Below are positions 1 through 20,346 of a stretch of DNA of 33,548 nucleotides, one piece after another. The stretch lies in NCBI GenBank assembly GCA_041622295.1, contig JBFJZC010000001.1, positions 1 to 33,548 of the forward strand, in the 5' to 3' direction. The notes under the pieces are model-generated. The model was given only the letters and a program-made list of their open reading frames with translations, was not told the DNA's origin and did not search any database. This DNA comes from Porticoccaceae bacterium. GTDB lineage: Bacteria > Pseudomonadota > Gammaproteobacteria > Pseudomonadales > Porticoccaceae. Made by a program: the position numbers and the translations under genes. Position 1 is the first letter of the stretch; each line of letters begins with the position of its first letter.

Positions 1-786
1 CGCGTCGCCCTCTGCTACCACCATTTTCAGTTTGGGGTGACGCTCAAACACACCACCAAATATAAACACGCCCATAATATCCTGCACACCGCGAATGATG
101 TTCATAAAGCCGTTGGCCGAATGCCCTCGCGCCGGCTTGAATGCGGACGAAACATCATGGCCTTTCATCGTCAGGATATGAAAGCAGACGGGCATATTGA
201 GATCGACGGCGCATTGCCACAGCGGATCATAATCGCGGTGATCGTAATCTTCATGTTGCGGATTGCCGGTCATCATCATGCCGCACATACCCATTTCCTT
301 GGCACGGCGAAAGTCTTCTATGGTTTCATCGACAGATGCCACGGCGGTTTGTGCGAGTCCGAACAGGCGGGTCGGTGCTTCACCGCAAAAAGTTTGTAGC
401 CAGCGGTTATAGGCATTGAAACAGGCGGATTTGTAGGTGTAATCCTCAAGGCCGCAGAGCACCATGCCCACCGAAGCATAAATGATTTCGGCACATATTT
501 TTTCTTCATCCTGAATAGCCAGGCGAGCACGCGGATTCCAGCTGGCTGGTGCCAGCTCGTCAAAACTGAGTCGGCGCTGTTTAACTAAATCCGCCGCTGG
601 GACCCCTGCGCCAGCCAGCAAACCCAGCGGCAGGGCCGTTGTCATGCCTTCAACCACAAACGCATCGACGCCGTATTTGTTCTTCTCAATGCGCGGTGCC
701 CTGCTGCGAAATTTCGGATCGATAAAGTCCACGTAGCAATGAGGTGGTTCAACGATATGGGAGTCTGCTGATATACAGGGTTTCAT
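1..786 (-). CDS. Amidohydrolase-2 (ACMSD-like metal-dependent hydrolase/decarboxylase) family protein; N-terminal 262 codons, C-terminus runs off the left edge
   Basis: Absent from the ORF track because the frame is open to the window edge. My translation of the reverse strand from ATG 786..784 reads MKPCISADSHIVEPPHCYVDFIDPKFRSRAPRIEKNKYGVDAFVVEGMTT...NIIRGVQDIMGVFIFGGVFERHPKLKMVVAEGDA, with no stop through base 1. AGGAGA (rc of 793..798) lies 6 nt upstream of the ATG. The N-terminal SADxHxxEP motif and the FGGVFERHP segment are typical of this family and are shared with the 9487..10683 paralogue. Confidence 0.8.
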   Translation of the reverse strand, partial: MKPCISADSHIVEPPHCYVDFIDPKFRSRAPRIEKNKYGVDAFVVEGMTTALPLGLLAGAGVPAADLVKQRRLSFDELAPASWNPRARLAIQDEEKICAEIIYASVGMVLCGLEDYTYKSACFNAYNRWLQTFCGEAPTRLFGLAQTAVASVDETIEDFRRAKEMGMCGMMMTGNPQHEDYDHRDYDPLWQCAVDLNMPVCFHILTMKGHDVSSAFKPARGHSANGFMNIIRGVQDIMGVFIFGGVFERHPKLKMVVAEGDA

Positions 787-4985: not shown

Positions 4986-7900
4986 GTGAATAATCGCTTA
5001 TCGCTCGTTGGGTGGTTTGCCAACAACAGCGTGGCCGCCAATATCATCATGGTTTTTCTGCTGGTGGGTGGATTTTTAGCTGCCCGTAGCATGATCACCG
5101 AAACGTTTCCTGCCCTGGATCCGCGTACCATTACCATTGCTACCCCTTACCCCGGCGCGACTCCCCACGATGTTGAAGAAAGTATAACGCGGCGTGTCGA
5201 GGAGGCAGTGATCGGCATACAGGGGGTCAAACGGGTCACCTCAAGCGCCAATGAAGGCGCCGGCGTGGTAACCGTGGTAATGGAGGATTTTGCCAACCAG
5301 AATCAGGTGCTGGACGACGTACAAACAGCGGTGGATGGCCTGGTTGATTTCCCGCCCGAAGAGGCCGAGGAGCCATCCATCATCAAAACCAAGCGCATTT
5401 CCAGCATGATGTCGCTGGCGGTGTTTGGTGCGGTCGATGAACGTACTCTCCACTACTGGGCGGAAAAGGTGGAAAGCGAGATGTTGCAGTTGCCGGAGGT
5501 AACGCTGATCGATGTCACCGGCGGACGCAATCTGGAAATTGCCATCGAGGTCAGTGAAGAAACACTGCGCCACTACGGATTGACCATAGACGATGTCTCT
5601 CGTCGCATCGCCGAGTTTTCTATCGATGTTCCGGGGGGAACCCTGCGCACTGAAGCCGGCGACATACTGATTCGAGTACAGAGCAAGCGTTATACCGGCG
5701 CAGAGTTTGCAGACATCACTATCCGCAGTCGTAAAGATGGCGCCAAGCTGAGGCTCAGCGAAATTGCAACCATTCGTGATGGCTTTGAGGACACGCAGGT
5801 CATCAATCACTACAACGGTAAACCGGCACTGTTCGTCCAGGTATCGCGCAGCGATACCCAGGATACCCTCGATACTGAGCGCGCCATCAAGGCCTATCTG
5901 ACCACCCTGCAGTTACCCGTCGGGCTCAATATAGAAATATGGCGGAATTCTACCGACGTGTTGCGCGATCGTATTAGCCTGATGGTGCGTAACGGCATTC
6001 TTGGCTACGTTCTGGTATTCCTCAGTTTGTTACTGTTTCTCGATTTGAAGCTGGCGTTCTGGACCAGTCTGGGTATACCTATATCGTTCATGGGTGGTCT
6101 ATTGCTGGTATCTTTTACCGGTATCACGATGAACATGATTACCCTGTTTGCTCTTATCATCGTACTGGGCATTGTGGTTGATGACGCCATTGTCACCGGC
6201 GAAAGTATTTTTAACGAGCAGGAGAAAAACCCGGACAATCCGAATGCGGTGCTGGATGGTGTGTTCCTGATCAAGGCGCCAGTCACCATCGGTGTGTTGA
6301 CCACCATTGCAGCCTTTGCCCCGTTGGTATTTTCGACGGGTGCCATGGCGCAAATCATGCTGCCGGTACCGCTGATCGTTATCGGCATCCTGGCGGTGTC
6401 ATTGATTGAAGCGTTTTACATATTGCCAGCTCACCTGGCTTCCACCTCTCGCTGGAGCCTCGGTTTGCTGGCGGCTCTGCGCGATAAAACCCATGGGGGC
6501 CTGGCGCGCTTTATTGAACATTGGGTGGTGCCTTCGATCACCCTCAGCCTGCGTTATCGCTACGTTGCCGTAGCGATAGGATGTGCGACCATTATTATTG
6601 CGCTGGGTATTTTTCAGGGCGGCTTCGTGCGCTTTATTTTCTTCCCGCAGATTGACAGCGATCACATCACCGTCAACCTCAAAATGCCGGTAGGCACCCC
6701 TTTCGAAACGACTTACCAATACGCCGCCAAAATTCTCGAAGCTGGCGAAACAATGGCCCGTGAAACAGACGCGTTGATTGATGCAGAGCTACCTGCAGAG
6801 AAATCTATCGTCGAGGCGATCTCATTCACTGTCGGCAGTCAGGGAGCAGATACGACAGGACCCATGGCGAGCAATGCCAGCGCTAACGCAACCAACCTGG
6901 CGCAAATCCGCATGGAACTGGTTCCCGGTGATCAACGGCCGTTTTCTTCCAGTGAGCTGGAGCGTCGCTGGCGAAAAAATACGCCGCTGATCCCTGGCGC
7001 GGAGAGCCTGACGTTCAGCAGCAGTCTGGTTCGCGCCGGCGATGATATAAATGTGGAACTGTCCCACCGTGATGAGCGGGTGTTAGCCAGCGCTGCTACT
7101 CAGCTCAAGCAGTCTCTTGGCTTGATTGAGGGTGTCAGCGAAGTAGAGGACAGCTTTGAACCGGGCAAACGAGAATACGTGTTTGCACTCACCTCGGCCG
7201 GATTAGCGGCAGGCCTGACACCGGTCGACATCGGTCGTCAGCTACGTTTTGCCTATTACGGCGCAGAAGTGCATCGTGTCCAGCGCGGGCGCAATGAACT
7301 CAAGGTGATGGTGCGTTACCCCCAGGCGCAGCGGCGGACACTTAGCGATCTTTACAATACCCGTATTCGACTTAAAGATGGCGCGGAAATGGATTTGCGT
7401 ACGGCGGCGGTGATTAGCGAGCAGCGCGGCTATTCGCGGATTGAACGGGTTGACGGTCATCGCATTGTCAGCGTCAGCGCCAACGTTGAAGAGGCAGTTA
7501 CCACGCCGGATGATGTTATAGCCAGCCTGCGTGAAACGGCGCTTCCCGAGCTTATGGTCGCGTATCCGGGTCTGTCTCACTCCTTTGCCGGGATCAGCCG
7601 TGATCAGAGCGACGATATGCAGTCGCTACTGCGCAATCTGGTGATCGCGGTGATGGTGATGTTTGTCATGCTGGCATCGCAACTGCGCAGTTACGTACAG
7701 CCGCTGGTTATTTTAAGCGCGATCCCTTTTGGATTCGTTGGCTCACTGTTGGGTCACCTGATCATGGGTTTCGATATCTCGTTTATATCCATGTTTGGCA
7801 TGATTGCTTTGTCTGGCGTAGTGATTAACGATTCTCTGGTACTGGTCGATTATTTCAATCATCTGCGGGCAGAGCAGGGCCTCGATACCAAAGAGGCGCT

Positions 7901-8156
7901 GATTGCCGCTGTGGCCCGTCGGTTTCGGCCGATTTTGCTAACCACTATGACCACCAGCCTTGGCCTGTTGCCGATGCTCCTGGAAACTAGCTTGCAGGCA
8001 AGATTTCTTATCCCCATGGCCATTAGCATTGCTTTTGGCATTCTTTATGCCAGCACGGTAATTATATTTCTGGTGCCAGCATTAATTCTCATCGCCGAGG
8101 ATTGCAAAGCGCTGGGCCGGACGCTTATTGGTCGACAAAACGAAGCGTCTACGTAA
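4986..8156 (+). CDS. RND efflux transporter permease (AcrB/AcrD/AcrF superfamily)
   Basis: ORF 4908..8156. The N-terminus LVGWFANNSVAANIIMVFLLVGGFLA matches the usual RND start. Twelve-TM architecture with two large periplasmic loops. Motifs include ALIIVLGIVVDDAIV and MIALSGVVINDSLVLVDY. I chose in-frame GTG 4986, with GAGGGA at 4968-4973 upstream, because it begins after the adaptor stop at 4969. The start could be as far upstream as 4908. Confidence 0.9.
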   Translation: MNNRLSLVGWFANNSVAANIIMVFLLVGGFLAARSMITETFPALDPRTITIATPYPGATPHDVEESITRRVEEAVIGIQGVKRVTSSANEGAGVVTVVMEDFANQNQVLDDVQTAVDGLVDFPPEEAEEPSIIKTKRISSMMSLAVFGAVDERTLHYWAEKVESEMLQLPEVTLIDVTGGRNLEIAIEVSEETLRHYGLTIDDVSRRIAEFSIDVPGGTLRTEAGDILIRVQSKRYTGAEFADITIRSRKDGAKLRLSEIATIRDGFEDTQVINHYNGKPALFVQVSRSDTQDTLDTERAIKAYLTTLQLPVGLNIEIWRNSTDVLRDRISLMVRNGILGYVLVFLSLLLFLDLKLAFWTSLGIPISFMGGLLLVSFTGITMNMITLFALIIVLGIVVDDAIVTGESIFNEQEKNPDNPNAVLDGVFLIKAPVTIGVLTTIAAFAPLVFSTGAMAQIMLPVPLIVIGILAVSLIEAFYILPAHLASTSRWSLGLLAALRDKTHGGLARFIEHWVVPSITLSLRYRYVAVAIGCATIIIALGIFQGGFVRFIFFPQIDSDHITVNLKMPVGTPFETTYQYAAKILEAGETMARETDALIDAELPAEKSIVEAISFTVGSQGADTTGPMASNASANATNLAQIRMELVPGDQRPFSSSELERRWRKNTPLIPGAESLTFSSSLVRAGDDINVELSHRDERVLASAATQLKQSLGLIEGVSEVEDSFEPGKREYVFALTSAGLAAGLTPVDIGRQLRFAYYGAEVHRVQRGRNELKVMVRYPQAQRRTLSDLYNTRIRLKDGAEMDLRTAAVISEQRGYSRIERVDGHRIVSVSANVEEAVTTPDDVIASLRETALPELMVAYPGLSHSFAGISRDQSDDMQSLLRNLVIAVMVMFVMLASQLRSYVQPLVILSAIPFGFVGSLLGHLIMGFDISFISMFGMIALSGVVINDSLVLVDYFNHLRAEQGLDTKEALIAAVARRFRPILLTTMTTSLGLLPMLLETSLQARFLIPMAISIAFGILYASTVIIFLVPALILIAEDCKALGRTLIGRQNEAST

Positions 8157-14674: not shown

Positions 14675-14964
14675 TAAAGGTCTTCTCGGGATCGAAGACT
14701 GCGCAGTATTTGCCTCCAGGCTGGTGGAGTAAAGGAATTTGTCTGTGTCGGGTCAATGTAGAATTTAATGCTGACTGGTCAATTAATATCTTGCCATTTT
14801 TGTGGTTTGGTCTTATATAGCAAACGCAGTGGGTGAGGCGTTCTGCCCGCTCACAATGTAGTGGTTGCCGACTGCACTGGTGTCGGTTCTCTGGGTAGCA
14901 CGACTGATATCAGATGGAAAAGTTCTGGGTGCAGACTCGGGACAAGGTACCGGACAAGGGCTTT

Positions 14965-17202
14965 ATGAGAAGTGTTATTCAAGAGCTGACACATATTGTT
15001 CAGGCCGTTTCGCTTGCCGATTCGCCCGACCAGCAGGTGTCGCTGATTGTCGAGTCGATCAGCCGCTCGATGGCTGTGGACGTCTGTAGCCTTTATCTGG
15101 CTAACGAGCAAGGCGATATGGTGCTGACGGCGACCCATGGCCTGGCTGGTACAGCAGTGCGAAAGGTGATTTTGCCTGCTGGTAAGGGCCTCGTTGGCCT
15201 GGCCGCCGCCAGCCGTCGCCCGGTTAATATTGCCGATGCGCCGCAGCATCCCGCCTATTTTTATGTGCCTGAGGCTGCGGAAGACCGTTTTCACGGTTTT
15301 TGTGCAGTGCCGCTAGTTTCTTTGGGAAAAACCATCGGTGTCCTGGTGGTGCAAAGCAGTGAAATACGGCAGTTTTCAAACGATGAAGAAGGTTTTTTTG
15401 TCACGCTGACGGCTCAGTTAGCGTTACTGCTGGTCAATTTTTCGCTATCCCCCTATGGCTCCGAAAATAATGTGCGCGTGCTCGGTGTTAGCGGCGCCCC
15501 CGGTGTGGCAATCGGGCATAGCCGATTCTGTGATCACGGCGAACTCTATCAGGTGCCCAGCGGGGTTTGCGAAAATGTCGAGGCTGCGCTCGCCGAATGG
15601 CGCGCCTTATTGGAGCAGGTACGCTATCAACTGGAGGACGAAAGAAAAGCGCTTGGTAAGGTGTTGAACGAAGAGGCCGGAGGTATTTTTACGGCTTACA
15701 GCATGTTGCTTGAAGATCCGGTATTTAATCTCCGGGTAGAGACCCGTATTCGGGAGGGGAACTGGCTGCCTGGTGCTTTACGCTTGACCATTCAGCACTT
15801 TGCCGAGTGCTTCCTGGCGATGGAGGACCCTTACCTGCAAGCTCGGCATGAGGACATTCGTCATCTTGGTAACAAGCTATATCAGGTGTGGCAGGGCGAT
15901 AAGGGGGCAACGTGTCAATCTGCAGTGGACGTGATACTGGTTGGGTCACAGGTCAGTGTCTCAGATATCGCCGCCGTTGCGGCTGGCCACCTACAGGGCA
16001 TTGTCAGTTTTGGCGGATCGCGTTTATCTCATGCGGCGGTGTTGGCTAACGCACTTGGCATCCCGGCGGTGATGGGCACGGGGGCAATTCCCGGTTTGAT
16101 GGATGGGCAGCCGCTGATTGTCGACGGACAACAGGGCCAGGTCTTTGTCAATCCGAGTGAAATCGTGTTGGGCGAATATCGCAAGCTGATTCGTGAACAT
16201 GATAAATTTATCCGTCAGCTGGATAATCTTCGTGAGCAACCAGCGCTTACCCAGGACGGCCAGCTCATTCATCTGTATACGAATACCGGTCTGTTGGCAG
16301 ATATTTCGCCAGGGCTGCGAGCCGGTGCGCAGGGTATCGGTCTGTACCGTACGGAAATACCGTTTATGGTGCACGACAGTTTTCCCTCTGAAGATGAACA
16401 GGTGGCGGTATATCGGCAGGTACTTGAAGCGTATCGAGGCAAGCCTGTTTATATGCGAACGCTCGATATTGGCGGTGATAAACAGTTGCCGTATTTTGCG
16501 ATACGGGGCGAGGACAATCCTGCGCTCGGCTGGCGGGGCATTCGTTTTTCCCTGGATAACAGCCAGTTGTTTATGACGCAGATCAGGGCTATGTTGCGAG
16601 CAGCGGAAACTGAGAGCAATTTGCATATTCTGTTACCCATGGTGAGTTCGACCCAGGAGATCGATGACTTCCAGGTGTTGCTCACCGAAGCAATGCGCCA
16701 GCTCATTGAGGAGGGTGTAGCAGTGGCCTTACCGCGGCTGGGAATTATGGTCGAAGTGCCTGCGGCCATTTCACAGATTCCGATTTGGGCCAAAAGACTC
16801 GATTTTATTTCTATAGGTTCCAATGACCTGAGTCAGTATCTACTGGCCCTGGATAGAAACAACGCGCGGGTTGCGTCGCGCTACGACCATGTGCATCCGG
16901 CTGTATTACATGAAATTCAGCGTATCGTGATGCATGCTCGGGCCGGGCAAATCCCGGTCAGTTTGTGTGGCGAAATGGCCGCTGACCCTGTTGCAGTTGT
17001 GCTGTTGCTGGGCCTGGGACTGCGGACCCTGAGCCTGAGTGCGGCTAAACTGCCCTATATAAAATGGCTAATAAGAACTATTTCGATACAGCAAGCTGAG
17101 GAGATCGTCAGTCAGGCGCTGCTAATGGATAATGCAAAAGCCATCAGGAGTCTGGTCGAAACTACGCTGAAAGAGCTGGGCTTGACGGAAATTTTTCATT
17201 GA
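14965..17202 (+). CDS. ptsP: Phosphoenolpyruvate-protein phosphotransferase PtsP (EI-Ntr) with N-terminal GAF domain
   Basis: ORF 14914..17202. From Met18 (ATG 14965) it is collinear with E. coli PtsP: GAF region (VCSLYLANEQGDMVLTATHGL...GLVGLAA...PVNIADAPQHPAYFY...FHGFCAVPL), phospho-His region (GGSRLSHAAVLANALGIPAVMG) and PEP-utilising TIM barrel (GIGLYRTE, RTLDIGGDK, NPALGWRGIR, FISIGSNDLSQY, VSLCGEMA). Confidence 0.92.
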   Translation: MRSVIQELTHIVQAVSLADSPDQQVSLIVESISRSMAVDVCSLYLANEQGDMVLTATHGLAGTAVRKVILPAGKGLVGLAAASRRPVNIADAPQHPAYFYVPEAAEDRFHGFCAVPLVSLGKTIGVLVVQSSEIRQFSNDEEGFFVTLTAQLALLLVNFSLSPYGSENNVRVLGVSGAPGVAIGHSRFCDHGELYQVPSGVCENVEAALAEWRALLEQVRYQLEDERKALGKVLNEEAGGIFTAYSMLLEDPVFNLRVETRIREGNWLPGALRLTIQHFAECFLAMEDPYLQARHEDIRHLGNKLYQVWQGDKGATCQSAVDVILVGSQVSVSDIAAVAAGHLQGIVSFGGSRLSHAAVLANALGIPAVMGTGAIPGLMDGQPLIVDGQQGQVFVNPSEIVLGEYRKLIREHDKFIRQLDNLREQPALTQDGQLIHLYTNTGLLADISPGLRAGAQGIGLYRTEIPFMVHDSFPSEDEQVAVYRQVLEAYRGKPVYMRTLDIGGDKQLPYFAIRGEDNPALGWRGIRFSLDNSQLFMTQIRAMLRAAETESNLHILLPMVSSTQEIDDFQVLLTEAMRQLIEEGVAVALPRLGIMVEVPAAISQIPIWAKRLDFISIGSNDLSQYLLALDRNNARVASRYDHVHPAVLHEIQRIVMHARAGQIPVSLCGEMAADPVAVVLLLGLGLRTLSLSAAKLPYIKWLIRTISIQQAEEIVSQALLMDNAKAIRSLVETTLKELGLTEIFH

Positions 17203-17241: not shown

Positions 17242-17742
17242 TTGAACAGTGACAGCTTGCTGTCCATCGCGCCTTATGACTGGCCGTCTATTGCCACGGC
17301 AATTTTTTGTGGCGCCATCATCGGTCTGGAGCGTCAACTCAGAGGCAAGCCGGTGGGTATTCGGACCTCATCAATAATCACCATGGGGACGTACATATTT
17401 TTACATTCGGCTATGTTGCTTAATAACGATGTTAGCGATCCTTCCCGCGTGATTGGTCAGGTGGTTACCGGTATTGGATTTTTAGGCGCGGGGGTAATGC
17501 TGGCGCGTGATGGCACGGTGGTGGGGGTTACATCCGCCGCGTCAATTTGGGTGCTGGCAGCTATTGGCGTTACGATTTCTCTCGGTCACCTGATGGCCGC
17601 GATAAAACTGTCATTGGTCACGGTGGCGATCCTCTATGGCGTTGAGTTTCTGGAACAACACACCAAGACATTTAGTCGTGGTGTGCATTCGCGATACAGC
17701 AATCGCCGAAAAACGGACAAGTCTGGAGGAAGTAAGCTGTGA
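17242..17742 (+). CDS. MgtC/SapB family membrane protein; short form without the C-terminal soluble domain
   Basis: 166-aa ORF with a TTG start. GGGAG at 17231-17235 lies 6 nt upstream. Family signature AIFCGAIIGLERQLRGKPVGIRTSSII plus GIGFLGAGVML...SAASIWVLAAIG. It begins 39 nt after the ptsP stop. Confidence 0.85.
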   Translation: MNSDSLLSIAPYDWPSIATAIFCGAIIGLERQLRGKPVGIRTSSIITMGTYIFLHSAMLLNNDVSDPSRVIGQVVTGIGFLGAGVMLARDGTVVGVTSAASIWVLAAIGVTISLGHLMAAIKLSLVTVAILYGVEFLEQHTKTFSRGVHSRYSNRRKTDKSGGSKL

Positions 17743-19205
17743 CCAATGTACTGGTGATCGTCGACAATGTAGAAGATATTGAGGCATATGATGCCAACGG
17801 TGTTGTGATTACTTTTGCTCAGTATCTGCAGGAACATCCCAAGAAAGGCGAAAAGAAAATCCGTCTTATTAATCTTTGTGATACCACGCATTACCTGAGC
17901 CGTGGTTATTATTGCTCTCTGCTGGCGGAGGCCCGTGGTCATCGGGTATTACCGTCGGTTAACACGATCAACGATCTGCGCAACGAACAGCTTTACATGG
18001 CGCAGATTTCGGAAGGGCTGTTCCCTGATAAAGGGAAAGAGCAGGACCCTGAGCCGGGTACCAAAGAAACGATTTATGTGTATTTCGGACACGCGTCCGA
18101 TCCGCGCTATGAAAAACTCGCACAACGTTTATTTACGCTATTTCCCGCGCCCAGTTTGAAAGTGGTGATGACCTGGAAATCCCGCTGGAAAATCAATAGC
18201 ATCCAACGCGTTGCTTTTGCCGGTTTGCCACACAAGCAACGACCGGCGTTCATGGAGGCATTGAATCGCTTTACTGAGCAGCACTGGAAAAGGAGCACCA
18301 GCAGGAAACGCTATCGCTGGGATATGGCTATTTTGGTTGAACCTGATGAAGCGATGCCGCCGAGCAATAAACTTGCATTGAGCAAGCTGGTCAAAGCCGC
18401 AGAAAAAATTAATATCAATGCCGACCTTATCACCGCCGCCGATTACACCCGGCTTAACGAATACGATGCCTTGTTTATCCGTACGACAACCGCCATTGAT
18501 CACTACACCTACCGGTTCTCTCGCAAAGCGGATATTGAGGGTATGGTAGTTGTCGACGATCCCACATCTATTTTGCGCTGTTGCAATAAAGTATTTTTAC
18601 AGGATGCGTTTACCTACAACAAAGTGCCATCTTTAGCGACGCAGGCGGTATTTGGTTTTGATGGCAAAACTGTCAGGGATATAGAACAACAATTTGACTA
18701 CCCCATGGTGTTGAAGGTGCCCGAGAGTTCTTTCTCGCGCGGTGTTTTCAAGGTGGCTGGACGCGACGAGCTGGTTAATCGGCTGGAGCAGTTGCTGGCT
18801 GAAACGGCCATCGTACTGGTGCAGGAATACCTTTATACAGATTACGACTGGCGTATTGGTGTGTTCAACAATAGACCGTTATTTGCCTGCCGGTATTTTA
18901 TGGCGAGAAACCATTGGCAGATTTATAATCACAGCAGCGAGCGCCATAGCAGTGGTGACTTCGAAACAATGCCCACATTTGAAGTGCCAAAACCAGTGCT
19001 CGACGCTGCGCTTAAAGCGTCGAAAGTGATTGGTGATGGCTTATATGGTGTTGACATCAAGCAGCTGGGAAAGCAGGCCTACGTAGTGGAAGTCAACGAC
19101 AACCCGAGTCTTGACCACAAAGTTGAAGACGTCTATTTGGGTGATGAGTTATATATGCTGGTGATGAACGAAATGGTCAGGCGCCTGGAGTTGCGAGGTC
19201 GATAA
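17739..19205 (+). CDS. RimK-like ATP-grasp ligase with N-terminal RLAN-type domain
   Basis: 488-aa ORF. The GTG start overlaps the upstream stop (GTGA at 17739-17742), with GGAGGA 8 nt upstream. The N-terminal ~190 aa (RLINLCDTTHYLSRGYYCSLLAEARGHRVLPSVNTINDL) match my memory of the RimK-like ATP-grasp N-terminal (RLAN) domain. The C-terminal half carries ATP-grasp motifs: YPMVLKVPESSFSRGVFKV, IVLVQEYL, DWRIGVFNNRPLFACRY, GLYGVDIKQLGKQAYVVEVNDNPS. Confidence 0.85.
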   Translation: MTNVLVIVDNVEDIEAYDANGVVITFAQYLQEHPKKGEKKIRLINLCDTTHYLSRGYYCSLLAEARGHRVLPSVNTINDLRNEQLYMAQISEGLFPDKGKEQDPEPGTKETIYVYFGHASDPRYEKLAQRLFTLFPAPSLKVVMTWKSRWKINSIQRVAFAGLPHKQRPAFMEALNRFTEQHWKRSTSRKRYRWDMAILVEPDEAMPPSNKLALSKLVKAAEKININADLITAADYTRLNEYDALFIRTTTAIDHYTYRFSRKADIEGMVVVDDPTSILRCCNKVFLQDAFTYNKVPSLATQAVFGFDGKTVRDIEQQFDYPMVLKVPESSFSRGVFKVAGRDELVNRLEQLLAETAIVLVQEYLYTDYDWRIGVFNNRPLFACRYFMARNHWQIYNHSSERHSSGDFETMPTFEVPKPVLDAALKASKVIGDGLYGVDIKQLGKQAYVVEVNDNPSLDHKVEDVYLGDELYMLVMNEMVRRLELRGR

Positions 19206-19679
19206 GTGGCTTCACCGGTTATTCGAAACGCTATCGCAGCCGATATTCCGATGCTGCTGGACATTGAAGCGAGCAGTTTCGCCAGCGACCATATTTCAAA
19301 ACGGCAATTCAATTACTTCCTGAAAAAAGCTAAAGCCAGGACACTCGTTGCCCTTGTTGACGGTATTGTTAGTGGCTATGCCATTGTGTTAATGCCTGCG
19401 CGAAAGAGCTACGCGCGACTCTATTCGATGGCGGTGGCAAAAAATATGAGAGGGTTTGGTATAGGTGATAGCTTATTGACGGCCGTCGATCAGGCGGTGG
19501 AAAATATCGGCTATTCTACGGCGGTGCTAGAGGTTCGGGTTTCCAGCGTTGGCGTAAGAAGGCTGTATGAAAAACACGGGTTTGTAGTTTGCCGCGTTCT
19601 GGGTGGATATTACGGCGATGGCGAAGACGGGCTCAAAATGAAAAAACAGATGGGGAGTAGCGATACTAAAAGATCGTGA
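19206..19679 (+). CDS. GNAT family N-acetyltransferase, RimI-like
   Basis: 157-aa ORF. The GTG start directly abuts the ATP-grasp stop (TAA 19203-19205), with GAGG 7 nt upstream. Motifs: acetyl-CoA motif A region MRGFGIGDSLL, then LEVRVSSVGVRRLYEKHGF....GYYGDGEDGLKM. This parallels E. coli RimI LEVRASNAAAIALYESLGF...NYYPT..GREDAIIM. Confidence 0.85.
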   Translation: MASPVIRNAIAADIPMLLDIEASSFASDHISKRQFNYFLKKAKARTLVALVDGIVSGYAIVLMPARKSYARLYSMAVAKNMRGFGIGDSLLTAVDQAVENIGYSTAVLEVRVSSVGVRRLYEKHGFVVCRVLGGYYGDGEDGLKMKKQMGSSDTKRS

Positions 19680-19700
19680 ATTTTGAGGGAATTATTTTTT

Positions 19701-20186
19701 ATGCTGAATAAAAACAGAAAAACTACTTGGTATGGAAAATTGGAAACCGCTACGTCGAGTACGGAGGTTATTTACGATCCGACACTACCGGAAGCACCAA
19801 AAAACCGTGTCTATCTTTACAATGTCGAGCGTGGACAAGTTATTCCATACGTTTGGGAGATAGTGAAGGACTTGCTGAGCGAGGCTGAAGGAGAAGAGCG
19901 GGCCAGGATTAAAAGCCGGGCAGGCAAGCGCTGGAAGGCCGCCCGCAAGACTTTTATGCAGGGCCGTATTATGTTGCCCAGGCAGCCGGTGTCCCCGGTG
20001 GAAACTAAAGTTGCCAAGCCGTCAGATGACGACGAAATTATCGATCTGGGTATTCGCTTTGATGACGATGAGGTTGATGACGTGGTCGATGACGTGGTCG
20101 ATGATGTGGATGAAGTTGATGAAGTTGATGAAGTTGATGAAGTTGATGAAGTTGATGAAGAGGAAAGCTGCGAAGAAGATAGCTGA
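19701..20186 (+). CDS. Orphan 161-aa protein with a basic central segment and a poly-Asp/Glu/Val C-terminal tail
   Basis: ORF track 19683..20186. I prefer ATG 19701, with GAGGGA at 19685-19690. It starts 21 nt after the GNAT stop on the same strand and is followed by a strong hairpin. 32 of the last 54 residues are Asp or Glu, with one Arg. The segment RARIKSRAGKRWKAARKTFMQGRIMLPR has 11 Lys/Arg in 28 residues. I recognise no family. Confidence 0.65.
   Translation: MLNKNRKTTWYGKLETATSSTEVIYDPTLPEAPKNRVYLYNVERGQVIPYVWEIVKDLLSEAEGEERARIKSRAGKRWKAARKTFMQGRIMLPRQPVSPVETKVAKPSDDDEIIDLGIRFDDDEVDDVVDDVVDDVDEVDEVDEVDEVDEVDEEESCEEDS
20076..20162. repeat. In-frame coding minisatellite: GATGACGTGGTC x2, then GATGAAGTT x5 perfect with degenerate flanking copies
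   Basis: Read directly. 12-mers at 20076-20087 and 20088-20099. 9-mers at 20109-20153 (five perfect copies, encoding DEV each), flanked by GATGATGTG (20100-20108) and GATGAAGAG (20154-20162). Confidence 0.95.
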
Positions 20187-20254
20187 GCGTAGCGAGGGGT
20201 CGGCATCAACGGCCTCCAATCTGTGCTGTTACGCTGGACTTTCTTAAGCTATAT

Positions 20255-20290
20255 AACCAGGCCCTGAGCACGATTGTTCAGGGCCTGGTT
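20255..20290. terminator. Perfect 13-bp stem hairpin between convergent operons; likely bidirectional terminator
   Basis: AACCAGGCCCTGA (20255-20267), 10-nt loop, TCAGGGCCTGGTT (20278-20290). It lies between the acidic-tail gene stop (20186) and the speB stop (20347). Flanking T/A runs are short (TT on plus, TATAT on minus). Confidence 0.65.
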
Positions 20291-20335
20291 AGTTCAGTAC
20301 GCGGTTGGTTAGTGTAGTACGCAGTTAGTTCGGTG
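20287..20335. repeat. Imperfect direct repeat with 20-nt period (GGTTAGTTCAGTACGC / GGTTAGTGTAGTACGC / AGTTAGTTCGG)
   Basis: Read directly: 16-mers at 20287-20302 and 20307-20322 differ at 2 positions, and a third partial copy follows. The first copy overlaps the 3-prime arm of the hairpin. Confidence 0.8.
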
Positions 20336-20346
20336 GCAGGTTGGAG

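Follow-up and report, generated by a model that had tools for sequence, protein, structure and literature searches.

The window analysed here, a stretch of 33,548 nt at the start of a Porticoccaceae contig (JBFJZC010000001.1), contains an open reading frame whose product would join a Lys/Arg-rich segment to a long acidic C-terminus. Is this frame a gene, does its product stand alone, and what might such a protein do? A sequence-only reading had described an orphan protein with 11 basic residues in 28, followed by 32 acidic residues and a single basic one in 54. Both counts are exact: the basic stretch is aa 67–94 (RARIKSRAGKRWKAARKTFMQGRIMLPR) and the tail is aa 108–161 (SDDDEII...CEEDS), with R119 as its only basic residue. 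Under ordinary proteome composition, the binomial P is ~1e-4 for the basic run and ~6e-16 for the acidic run. The frame opens with an ATG at 19701 and closes with a stop codon at 20184–20186 (Table 1). The protein sequence shows neither a signal peptide nor a membrane segment; we take it to be a small cytoplasmic protein.

Table 1. Coordinates of the gene, its parts and its flanking features in the window, with the evidence for each.
Feature	Position	Strand	Evidence
Upstream genes of the apparent operon	17242..19679	+	Pfam and NCBIfam matches
MgtC-family gene	17242-17742	+	Pfam/NCBIfam
RLAN-RimK ATP-grasp ligase	17739-19205	+	Pfam/NCBIfam
RimI-like GNAT acetyltransferase	19206-19679	+	Pfam/NCBIfam
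Shine-Dalgarno-like GAGGG, 10 nt 5' of the ATG	19686..19690	+	Read in the sequence
CDS of the 161-aa protein, stop codon included	19701..20186	+	ORF list, orthologues, NG86 dN/dS, family representatives
Predicted folded domain, aa 1-88 (barrel and long helix)	19701..19964	+	AlphaFold2, truncated model, family consensus
Basic stretch, aa 67-94, 11 K/R in 28	19899..19982	+	Residue counts; helix models
Variable, predicted-disordered linker, aa 89-107	19965..20021	+	pLDDT, family alignment, dN/dS
Acidic tail, aa 108-161, 32 D/E in 54	20022..20183	+	Counts, dN/dS, family tails
In-frame tandem repeats encoding the tail expansion	20072..20160	+	Tandem Repeats Finder, orthologue alignment
In-frame presence/absence stretch, 48 nt (16 codons)	20097..20144	+	Metagenome contigs, orthologue alignment
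Hairpin between convergent stop codons, 17-bp stem, 4-nt loop	20254..20291	.	RNA fold

Five orthologues, 78–99% identical, retain the frame, the start codon, the ribosome-binding site and the architecture. Pairwise NG86 dN/dS ranged from 0.05 to 0.21 over the whole ORF, with dS up to ~1.0, and stayed below 0.35 in each of three segments, tail included. It was highest at aa 61–108 (0.14–0.32), where the linker falls, and 0.00–0.15 in the tail. Every length change among orthologues and natural variants is a multiple of three. The GAGGG motif sits inside the 21-nt gap between the GNAT stop codon and the ATG; its purine-rich GGG core (19688–19690) and its spacing from the ATG are common to all five orthologous loci, four of which have GAGGG and one (L001) GGGGA, and the ATG is invariant. 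The idea that the ORF is spurious, a product of intergenic tandem-repeat DNA that looks like coding sequence, could draw on the near-perfect 9- and 12-nt repeats that make up part of the tail, on mirror ORFs in alternative frames and on the opposite strand, and on our search for RNA or protein evidence of the locus, which found none. Set against these are the dN/dS values at substantial dS, the in-frame length changes and a non-repetitive 88-aa domain with 117 homologous clusters and a high-confidence predicted fold. The homologue clusters and dN/dS effectively rule this idea out, and we give it a negligible probability. With in-frame orthologues under purifying selection, the doubt over coding status that accompanied the sequence-only reading falls away, and the substitution pattern indicates that the ORF is a real, translated-type gene.

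RNA runs contained only 4–7% of the target gene's words, these coming from repeat matches, and one estuary metatranscriptome yielded a single 151-nt contig inside the upstream GNAT gene and none on the target gene. A metagenome scan with the N-terminal alignment recovered one TARA locus, and a genome-collection scan with the GNAT protein returned no close relative (best match 46% identical). The runs with matching reads were of marine, estuary and beach origin, and several more bore the label soil metagenome. Downstream, RNA folding of 20187–20346 gave −68.1 kcal/mol (z = −4.8), and the hairpin stem is partly kept in loci L036 and L008. No T-run follows the hairpin and a consensus terminator scan made no call there; it is probably a bidirectional terminator or an mRNA-stabilising stem. 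Scans upstream of seven family loci for LexA, Fur, sigma-32 and sigma-54 sites and for shared 8-mers gave nothing consistent.

The protein is not an orphan. A word-indexed protein search with the N-terminal query returned only 4 close orthologues, the same type of search with the family profile gave 10 matches and was swamped by acidic-tail words, and the family was revealed only through an exhaustive HMM search. Against 1.84 billion representatives, hmmsearch found 117 clusters at E <1e-3, of which 39 had E <1e-10; almost all are 110–150 aa long and align from residue 1, with E-values as low as 1e-25 for non-orthologues. Scored against the family N-terminal HMM, the window protein reaches 128.8 bits; it combines the 88-aa N-terminal profile with the acidic C-terminal tail that together define membership, and it has all the near-invariant residues of the alignment (W10, G12, L14, V23, L39, N41, Y50, V55 and L59). 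Named members, in Shewanella (such as ABO25139.1 of Shewanella loihica PV-4) and Granulosicoccaceae, are annotated "hypothetical protein". The remark that the N-terminal domain belongs to no recognised family has held up: the window protein had 0 matches in Pfam and NCBIfam, and PDB searches by sequence and by fold gave nothing significant. When 41 members were compared with Pfam at E up to 1, only scattered noise appeared and no Pfam family was matched by more than 3 of them. Searches of the literature on RLAN/RimK, RimK/MATCAP and the Shewanella accessions found no relevant papers.

We also considered a mobile-element or phage-borne gene, such as an anti-defence DNA mimic. PADLOC and PHROGs gave noise only (E 0.01 or worse), tblastn found no match among 50,697 phage and 72,556 plasmid records, and two scans of IMG/VR viral contigs found no relative. 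This origin was rejected; the family is chromosomal, neither mobile nor viral. We conclude that the gene belongs to a previously undescribed family of small cytoplasmic proteins of ~110–160 aa, mostly from marine Gammaproteobacteria.

AlphaFold2 with the family alignment gave pLDDT 82–96 (mean >90) over aa 1–90 and ~45–59 beyond, and a domain-only model reached pLDDT 86.6 and pTM 0.76. In these models aa 1–88 form a five-stranded SH3-like barrel (strands at aa 10–15, 20–25, 36–41, 46–51 and 59–61) followed by a long helix, placed at aa 65–88 in the full-length model and 65–90 in the truncated one, which bears the motif WKxARKxF with its conserved basic residues. The basic stretch is predicted to be mostly the solvent-exposed face of this helix. 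The linker has pLDDT ~45–51 and shows no conservation in the family alignment, where both its length and its sequence vary. The best Foldseek matches were weak and all SH3-like barrels (PWWP, WYL, KorB-C, SH3); nothing reached E ≤0.001 for the full-length and domain-only models against the PDB or for the full-length model against BFVD, and a PDB sequence-profile search returned nothing. The searches found no relative of known function by sequence or structure, so any mechanism is read from the architecture. That architecture is shared across the family: an 88-aa SH3-like barrel with a long helix, a variable disordered linker, and an acidic tail with hydrophobic or aromatic residues.

Of 130 family sequences, ~115 have an acidic tail, and the last 30 residues have a median net charge of −11. 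After the domain, the window protein carries a net charge of −28 vs a family median of ~−10, and its tail is the extreme of the family. Hydrophobic residues occur within the last 15 aa of all full-length members (86/86), and aromatic ones in 67/86. Endings of the type xLEDMxF[DE] recur across the family; the window tail contains the hydrophobic patch IIDLGIRF (aa 113–120), and its conserved end is VDEVDEEESCEED[SG]. Such a composition suggests that the family tail has short-linear-motif character. The last residue is Asp in 41/86 members and Glu in 14/86 (Asp or Glu in 55/86); the C-terminus reads ...CEEDS in the window protein and ...EEDG in one orthologue.

Part of the window tail is recent. 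Tandem Repeats Finder identified a 12-nt unit, GGTCGATGACGT, repeated 3.2 times at 20072–20109, and a 9-nt unit, GATGAAGTT, repeated 6.8 times at 20100–20160; together such recent repeats add 16 aa relative to most orthologues. The 48-nt presence/absence stretch is missing from the 145-aa orthologues and from a contig of metagenome run X3; the long form is present in runs X1 and X6. The window tail has been lengthened by slippage of the 9- and 12-nt repeats, and tail length is polymorphic, in frame, between natural populations.

In the window lineage, the gene is placed behind an mgtC/RLAN-rimK/GNAT operon, along which start and stop codons overlap or abut. It converges on genes for an arginase-family protein, a carboxynorspermidine-type decarboxylase, a saccharopine-dehydrogenase-type protein and an arginine decarboxylase. 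The order MgtC, RLAN-RimK, GNAT, target is also found in L036. The closest syntenic relative, L003, has the MgtC-RimK-GNAT/speB order without the target gene, and no family member lies elsewhere in its 18-kb locus. The neighbours are as the sequence-only reading had them, but the MgtC/polyamine setting is not a family trait: L003 lacks the gene and other contexts are unrelated. Other members adjoin gltX (L037), an EF-G paralogue (L039), recC or galM, and no RimK-family ligase lies near the gene in L037, L039, L040, L043 or L045. In a second, distant clade (L046/L047), a RimB-like + RimK_N + RimK fusion lies immediately upstream of the gene; members of this clade are ~34–37% identical to the window protein and 53% identical among themselves. 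A convergent Acetyltransf_CG gene is a further feature of the clade. In L047 a MATCAP/DUF1704 carboxypeptidase homologue is nearby, and rimBK and the gene are 200 bp apart, with AT-rich DNA and a promoter-like site in between. A RimK-type ligase and an acetyltransferase thus recur beside members of one other clade. Across the family, the gene mostly stands as a single cistron in variable surroundings, a pattern to be expected of a free-standing small regulator.

The explanation we favour, at somewhat less than even chances and with low confidence in the mechanism, is a real gene of a new family whose product is a tethered-tail adaptor or regulator. One partner, nucleic acid or protein, would serve as the docking site of the barrel-helix domain, and the flexible acidic-hydrophobic tail would bind the basic groove of a second partner, or compete with polyanions there. 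The disordered C-termini of SSB, Hfq and SspB work as such tethered tails. The leading candidates for a partner are a RimK-type glutamate ligase and the translation apparatus. Against this explanation, the C-terminal residue is unconserved, unlike the SSB tip, being Ser in the window protein and mostly Asp in the family. The basic character of the domain is not conserved either, its net charge having a median of +2 and a range from −6 to +8; the Lys/Arg-rich core is present in the window protein (+6) but is largely lineage-specific.

A more specific reading, that the protein is a substrate, docking partner or regulatory partner of RimK-type ATP-grasp ligases, strikes us as unlikely. The acidic tail would be extended with glutamates and trimmed, as the acidic C-terminus of S6 is by RimK with the RimB protease, with a possible second modification by the neighbouring acetyltransferase. 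The site at which RimK works is an acidic, disordered C-terminus (PMC7343187, PMC11957791). Between the RLAN-RimK and RimI-like GNAT pair and the start of the gene lie 21 nt, a spacing kept in four orthologous loci, and the distant L046/L047 clade adjoins a different RimK architecture together with an acetyltransferase gene. That makes 2 of ~6 independent contexts beside a one-to-few-copy gene family, for which we roughly estimate a chance P of ~1e-3 to 1e-4, uncorrected for the post-hoc choice. Yet RLAN-RimK has at least 7975 homologues vs the 117 clusters of the target family, L003 carries the ligase operon without the gene, four other contexts have no RimK within 6–8 kb, and the gap in L047 parts gene and ligase. 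The tail also rarely ends in Glu, and that of the window ends EEDS. E. coli RimK extends the C-terminal Glu of S6; the window protein has no such Glu(-Glu) terminus, and a rule taken from E. coli RimK and S6 may not hold for RLAN-RimK. In its fullest form, to which we assign a still smaller chance, the family would be a second protein-substrate class or dedicated partner of RimK-type ligases, its tail length set genetically by repeat slippage and enzymatically by acetylation and by the addition and removal of glutamates through RimK, RimB and a MATCAP-like carboxypeptidase. If so, bacteria would have an "acidic-tail code" like S6 and tubulin glutamylation, tuning binding by the barrel-helix domain.

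The protein could instead be a translation-associated factor: its domain would bind the ribosome or RNA, and its tail, mimicking acidic tails of the stalk-like or another kind, would engage translational GTPases or synthetases. A translation-linked neighbour (gltX in L037, the EF-G paralogue in L039, an S6-type RimK or a RimI-like GNAT in the window and L046/L047) occurs in 4 of ~6 contexts, and many ribosomal and RNA-binding proteins contain SH3-like barrels. Some tails (DDDFGGGFDLDMDD and DDGFGADYDSV, for example) look like the acidic ends, with Gly and Phe, of stalk P proteins from archaea and eukaryotes, a likeness that we take as a lead and no more. Between the gene and gltX or the EF-G paralogue lie 190–380 bp, so the genes do not form operons there; the translation theme was picked out after the fact, and Pfam, PDB sequence and fold searches revealed no similarity to any ribosomal or RNA-binding family. 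We consider this role improbable. Less probable again is the earlier proposal of a polyanion or DNA mimic, or of an Mg2+/polyamine buffer tied to the MgtC and polyamine genes, with a tail that self-inhibits a basic nucleic-acid-binding core. The extreme acidity of the tail, the Lys/Arg-rich helix and the flanking MgtC gene and speA/carboxynorspermidine-pathway/speB cluster speak for it, as do precedents: CarS is an SH3-like DNA mimic and the acidic tip of Hfq self-inhibits. But L003 keeps the MgtC/polyamine synteny without the gene, no other member shares that synteny, and one small protein could hardly buffer cations in bulk unless present in very large amounts. Typical members combine a tail of about −10 with a near-neutral domain. 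Over 86 members, domain and tail charge are positively correlated (Spearman +0.35), the opposite of compensation, and the self-inhibition idea thus finds no support.

The outcome is a clean definition of a conserved, apparently structured and unannotated small-protein family with no Pfam or NCBIfam model, literature or structural homologue. A folded domain with an acidic tail is a recurring regulatory design, known from SSB, Hfq, SspB and S6. A new tail-bearing domain found twice beside RimK-type ligases offers a testable lead on targets of RLAN-RimK and RimBK besides S6, and another on how repeat-driven variation in tail length affects such proteins. Since the family is present in cultured, genetically tractable Shewanella, it is open to study; should the ligase link fail, what is left is an ordinary hypothetical protein of modest interest.

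Among known systems, the closest in fold are PWWP/Tudor-like and WYL domains, which share with the predicted structure a five-strand SH3-like barrel followed by a helix. The TM-scores to PWWP are 0.42–0.44 and non-significant, and the resemblance appears to be at the level of fold class only. Membership of the PWWP/Tudor "royal family" was rejected (best Foldseek E 0.17, TM ≤0.44, identity 6–13%); the family alignment contains no PWWP motif or aromatic cage, and there was no Pfam match. An Hfq/Sm-like identity was rejected as well, the order of elements being reversed: here the long helix follows the barrel, whereas Sm proteins have an N-terminal helix and then five strands, with the Sm1 and Sm2 motifs. 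Hfq/Sm had no Pfam or PDB match, and neither the protein nor the family matched an SSB, Hfq or SspB profile in Pfam or PDB sequence searches.

By analogy, not by homology, the architecture matches that of SSB, and likewise the tethered tails of Hfq and SspB: a small beta-rich domain, a long variable linker and a short acidic-hydrophobic end. The predicted target domain, an SH3-like barrel with a helix, is neither an OB fold nor a canonical Sm fold. We therefore rejected SSB identity, as the predicted fold is not OB and SSB has no Pfam or PDB sequence match; SSB was not among the 50 Foldseek matches listed in each PDB search. A tip of the SSB D-D-D-I-P-F type was rejected too, the terminus being unconserved (Ser in the window, Asp or Glu in 55/86 members); the last residue in the target family is not a conserved aromatic. 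With S6 (RpsF) the protein has no sequence or fold relation. RimK modifies an acidic C-terminal tail (PMC4741518, PMC7343187, PMC11957791); in the window the ligase is of the RLAN subtype and the target tail has no Glu-Glu end, and RimK linkage is absent from most family contexts and from the closest syntenic relative. What the two systems have in common is a small protein with a disordered acidic C-terminus, as predicted for the target, and a target gene that adjoins a RimK-family ligase and an acetyltransferase in two separate clades.

We conclude that the target gene encodes a conserved small protein under selection. A word-indexed protein search recovered four close relatives (78–99% identical, 144–145 aa, one a fragment), and a TARA contig (locus L036) supplied a fifth orthologue. 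In the DNA of the orthologous loci (L001/L002, L007, L008 and L036), the start codon is kept and so is the purine-rich core of the ribosome-binding site, the order GNAT, 21 nt, target is identical wherever flanks exist, and all length differences are multiples of three. Whole-gene dN/dS was 0.05–0.21 (Nei-Gojobori; dS up to ~1.0), confirming by the comparison named in a sequence-only reading of this DNA that the gene is coding. By region, dN/dS was 0.02–0.18 for residues 1–60 (informative pairs), 0.14–0.32 for residues 61–108 and 0.00–0.15 for the acidic tail. Selection therefore acts on the tail at the protein level, and it is more than tolerated repeat DNA. A spurious ORF is excluded by the in-frame orthologues, the kept start and these ratios. 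An upstream TTG (19683) would lengthen the ORF; in alignments, the Met equivalent to 19701 is the start in all orthologues and family members. The single metatranscriptome contig found lies in the upstream GNAT gene and none on the target.

The ORF and the two charged segments of the sequence-only reading proved exact on recount. The basic stretch (residues 67–94) has 11 Lys/Arg in 28 (binomial P ~1e-4), and the acidic tail (residues 108–161) has 32 Asp/Glu in 54 with one basic residue (P ~6e-16), both far beyond chance against ordinary composition. The tail is partly encoded by two tandem repeats, and the window protein is 16 aa longer than most orthologues. Its length is still variable in nature: a contig from metagenome run X3 carries an exact 48-nt deletion (20097–20144), runs X1 and X6 have the long form, and the TARA orthologue shows an expansion of a different type (DDV/GDV). 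The acidic-hydrophobic tail grows and shrinks through repeat slippage. Mirror and shifted-frame ORFs at 19817–20209 (−; poly-Ser/Thr, SSTSST...) and 20011–20247 (+; MKLMKLMKL...) are by-products that the 9- and 12-nt repeats alone create, and could be mis-annotated by gene callers.

Coordinates of the features in the window and in related loci
Feature	Position	Strand	Remark
PtsP, GAF-domain PEP-utilising enzyme (enzyme I of nitrogen PTS type)	14914–17202		directly upstream of MgtC-RimK unit
MgtC-family gene	17242–17742	+	
RLAN-RimK ATP-grasp ligase	17739–19205	+	
RimI-like GNAT	19206–19679	+	
GAGGG (ribosome-binding site)	10 nt 5' of ATG 19701	+	within 21-nt gap after GNAT stop codon
Target CDS	19701–20186	+	ATG 19701, stop 20184–20186; 161 aa
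Tandem repeat, 12-nt unit, 3.2 copies	20072–20109	+	codes for part of acidic tail
Tandem repeat, 9-nt unit, 6.8 copies	20100–20160	+	codes for part of acidic tail
17-bp hairpin	20254–20291		between convergent stop codons
SH3-like barrel strands (predicted model)	aa 10–15, 20–25, 36–41, 46–51, 59–61		short helix before last strand
Long helix with conserved WKxARKxF (predicted model)	aa 65–88 (full-length), 65–90 (truncated)		after barrel
Family member P0125	L037		before gltX
Family member	L039		before EF-G paralogue
Family member	L040		after flavodoxin-like gene
Family member	L043		divergent from recC
Family member	L045		between alcohol dehydrogenase and galM
Fused RimB-like protease + RimK_N + RimK ligase (457 aa) and neighbourhood	L047 3015–5799; L046 1–330		

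The protein is not the orphan it had appeared to be. When the N-terminal 125 columns were run exhaustively as a profile against 1.84 billion representative proteins, 117 of these matched at E ≤1e-3 (39 at ≤1e-10), nearly all of 110–150 aa and aligned from residue 1. The consensus is MxxxxxKxxWYGxLxT...VIxDPxLPxAPxGxVYLYNxxRxxIVxYVxxIVxxxLxDL...WKxARKxF, with W10, G12, L14, V23, L39, N41, Y50, V55 and L59 near-invariant in the alignment. The remark that the N-terminal ~100 residues belong to no recognised family stands: Pfam gave no consistent model match among 41 members, and NCBIfam, PADLOC, PHROGs and PDB sequences gave none. Pfam, PDB sequence and literature searches found no model, structure or paper on the family, which is present in databases solely as unnamed proteins, "hypothetical protein" in every case. 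Named carriers are Shewanella (S. loihica PV-4, S. insulae, S. marisflavi and sp. UCD-KL21) and a Granulosicoccaceae isolate; the others are marine or estuarine metagenome bins. Phage and plasmid records and viral contigs yielded no member.

AlphaFold2 with the family alignment confidently predicts a barrel-helix domain (pLDDT 82–96, mean >90, over residues 1–90) followed by a disordered linker (~45–59 beyond); the domain-only model reached pLDDT 86.6 and pTM 0.76. Foldseek searches of PDB and BFVD gave nothing significant, and the weak top matches are all small barrels (PWWP, WYL, KorB-C, SH3; E ≥0.17, TM ≤0.44). The acidic tail is a family trait, with a median net charge of −11 over the last 30 residues. 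Among full-length representatives, the last 15 aa include a hydrophobic residue in 86 of 86 and an aromatic one in 67 of 86; recurrent ends are variants of xLEDMxF[DE], DFDxD or DWDDE. The window protein is the family extreme (net −28 after the domain, median ~−10) and among the longest members, and its domain is among the most basic (+6, median +2). Across members, domain and tail charges correlate positively (Spearman 0.35), the opposite of what tail-core charge compensation predicts, which speaks against the proposal that the tail self-inhibits a basic core.

The neighbours named from sequence are all present: the target is the fourth gene of a tight series (MgtC-family, RLAN-RimK, GNAT, target), towards which arginase-family, carboxynorspermidine-type decarboxylase, saccharopine-dehydrogenase-type and arginine decarboxylase genes converge. 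The ligase family is very large, with at least 7975 homologues; the window ligase and the GNAT could together N-acetylate a peptide that the ligase makes, or modify a protein. The nearest ligase from outside the clade (71% identical), at locus L003, lies in the same MgtC-RimK-GNAT arrangement opposite the same polyamine genes; there the target is absent, the GNAT gene and the arginase gene overlap end to end, and no family member was found elsewhere in the 18-kb locus. The next relative (65%) lies in PtsP-RimK-S20, without MgtC, GNAT or target. The gene was therefore added to the operon within a narrow lineage. The tight MgtC-RLAN-RimK-GNAT unit itself, with overlapping start and stop codons, is conserved (window 17242–19679, L003 9432–11947, L036 2579–5019), and in two lineages, with 71% identity between their ligases, it converges on a speA/carboxynorspermidine-pathway/speB cluster. 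The 3' untranslated spacer between target and speB contains 2.2 copies of a 20-nt tandem repeat (TGGTTAGTGCAGTACGCAGT, 20286–20330), which is longer in L036 and absent from L001.

The protein may be a tethered-tail adaptor or regulator, by analogy with SSB, Hfq and SspB, whose tails bind a basic groove of a partner or compete with polyanions. One partner would dock on the barrel-helix domain, while the tail would occupy a basic groove of a second or compete with polyanions. The design of small domain plus acidic tail is already of a known kind; the domain itself is without recognised relatives. A cation buffer or DNA mimic tied to MgtC and polyamines has lost its contextual support, since the target is missing from L003 despite synteny and the other members lie in unrelated places. 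Each of the members in L037, L039, L040, L043 and L045 has a ribosome-binding site of its own, and no upstream motif common to the family loci was found. On L037, 1.4 kb without a called gene (6573–8001) precedes P0125, and plasmid-type TrbL, T4SS and RepA_C lie further downstream.

For such an adaptor, the translation machinery is one candidate partner and RimK-type ligases are another. The members in L046 and L047 (53% identical to each other) lie a short way downstream of the RimB-like + RimK_N + RimK fusion ligase and converge on an Acetyltransf_CG gene. In L047 a 200-bp AT-rich spacer with a promoter-like site stands between ligase and family member, and a MATCAP/DUF1704 carboxypeptidase homologue stands beside the ligase; two candidate tail-trimming peptidases and a glutamate ligase share this neighbourhood. 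A RimK-type ligase, of a low-copy family, and an acetyltransferase adjoin the gene in 2 of ~6 independent contexts, more than we would expect by chance, in a small sample and as a pattern noticed post hoc. This testable ligase link and the tractable Shewanella homologues give the family its value. The tail would then be a candidate ligase substrate, as ribosomal S6 is of RimK (PMC4741518, PMC7343187, PMC11957791); the analogy is weakened at the terminus, however, where family tails mostly end in Asp and the window tail in Ser.
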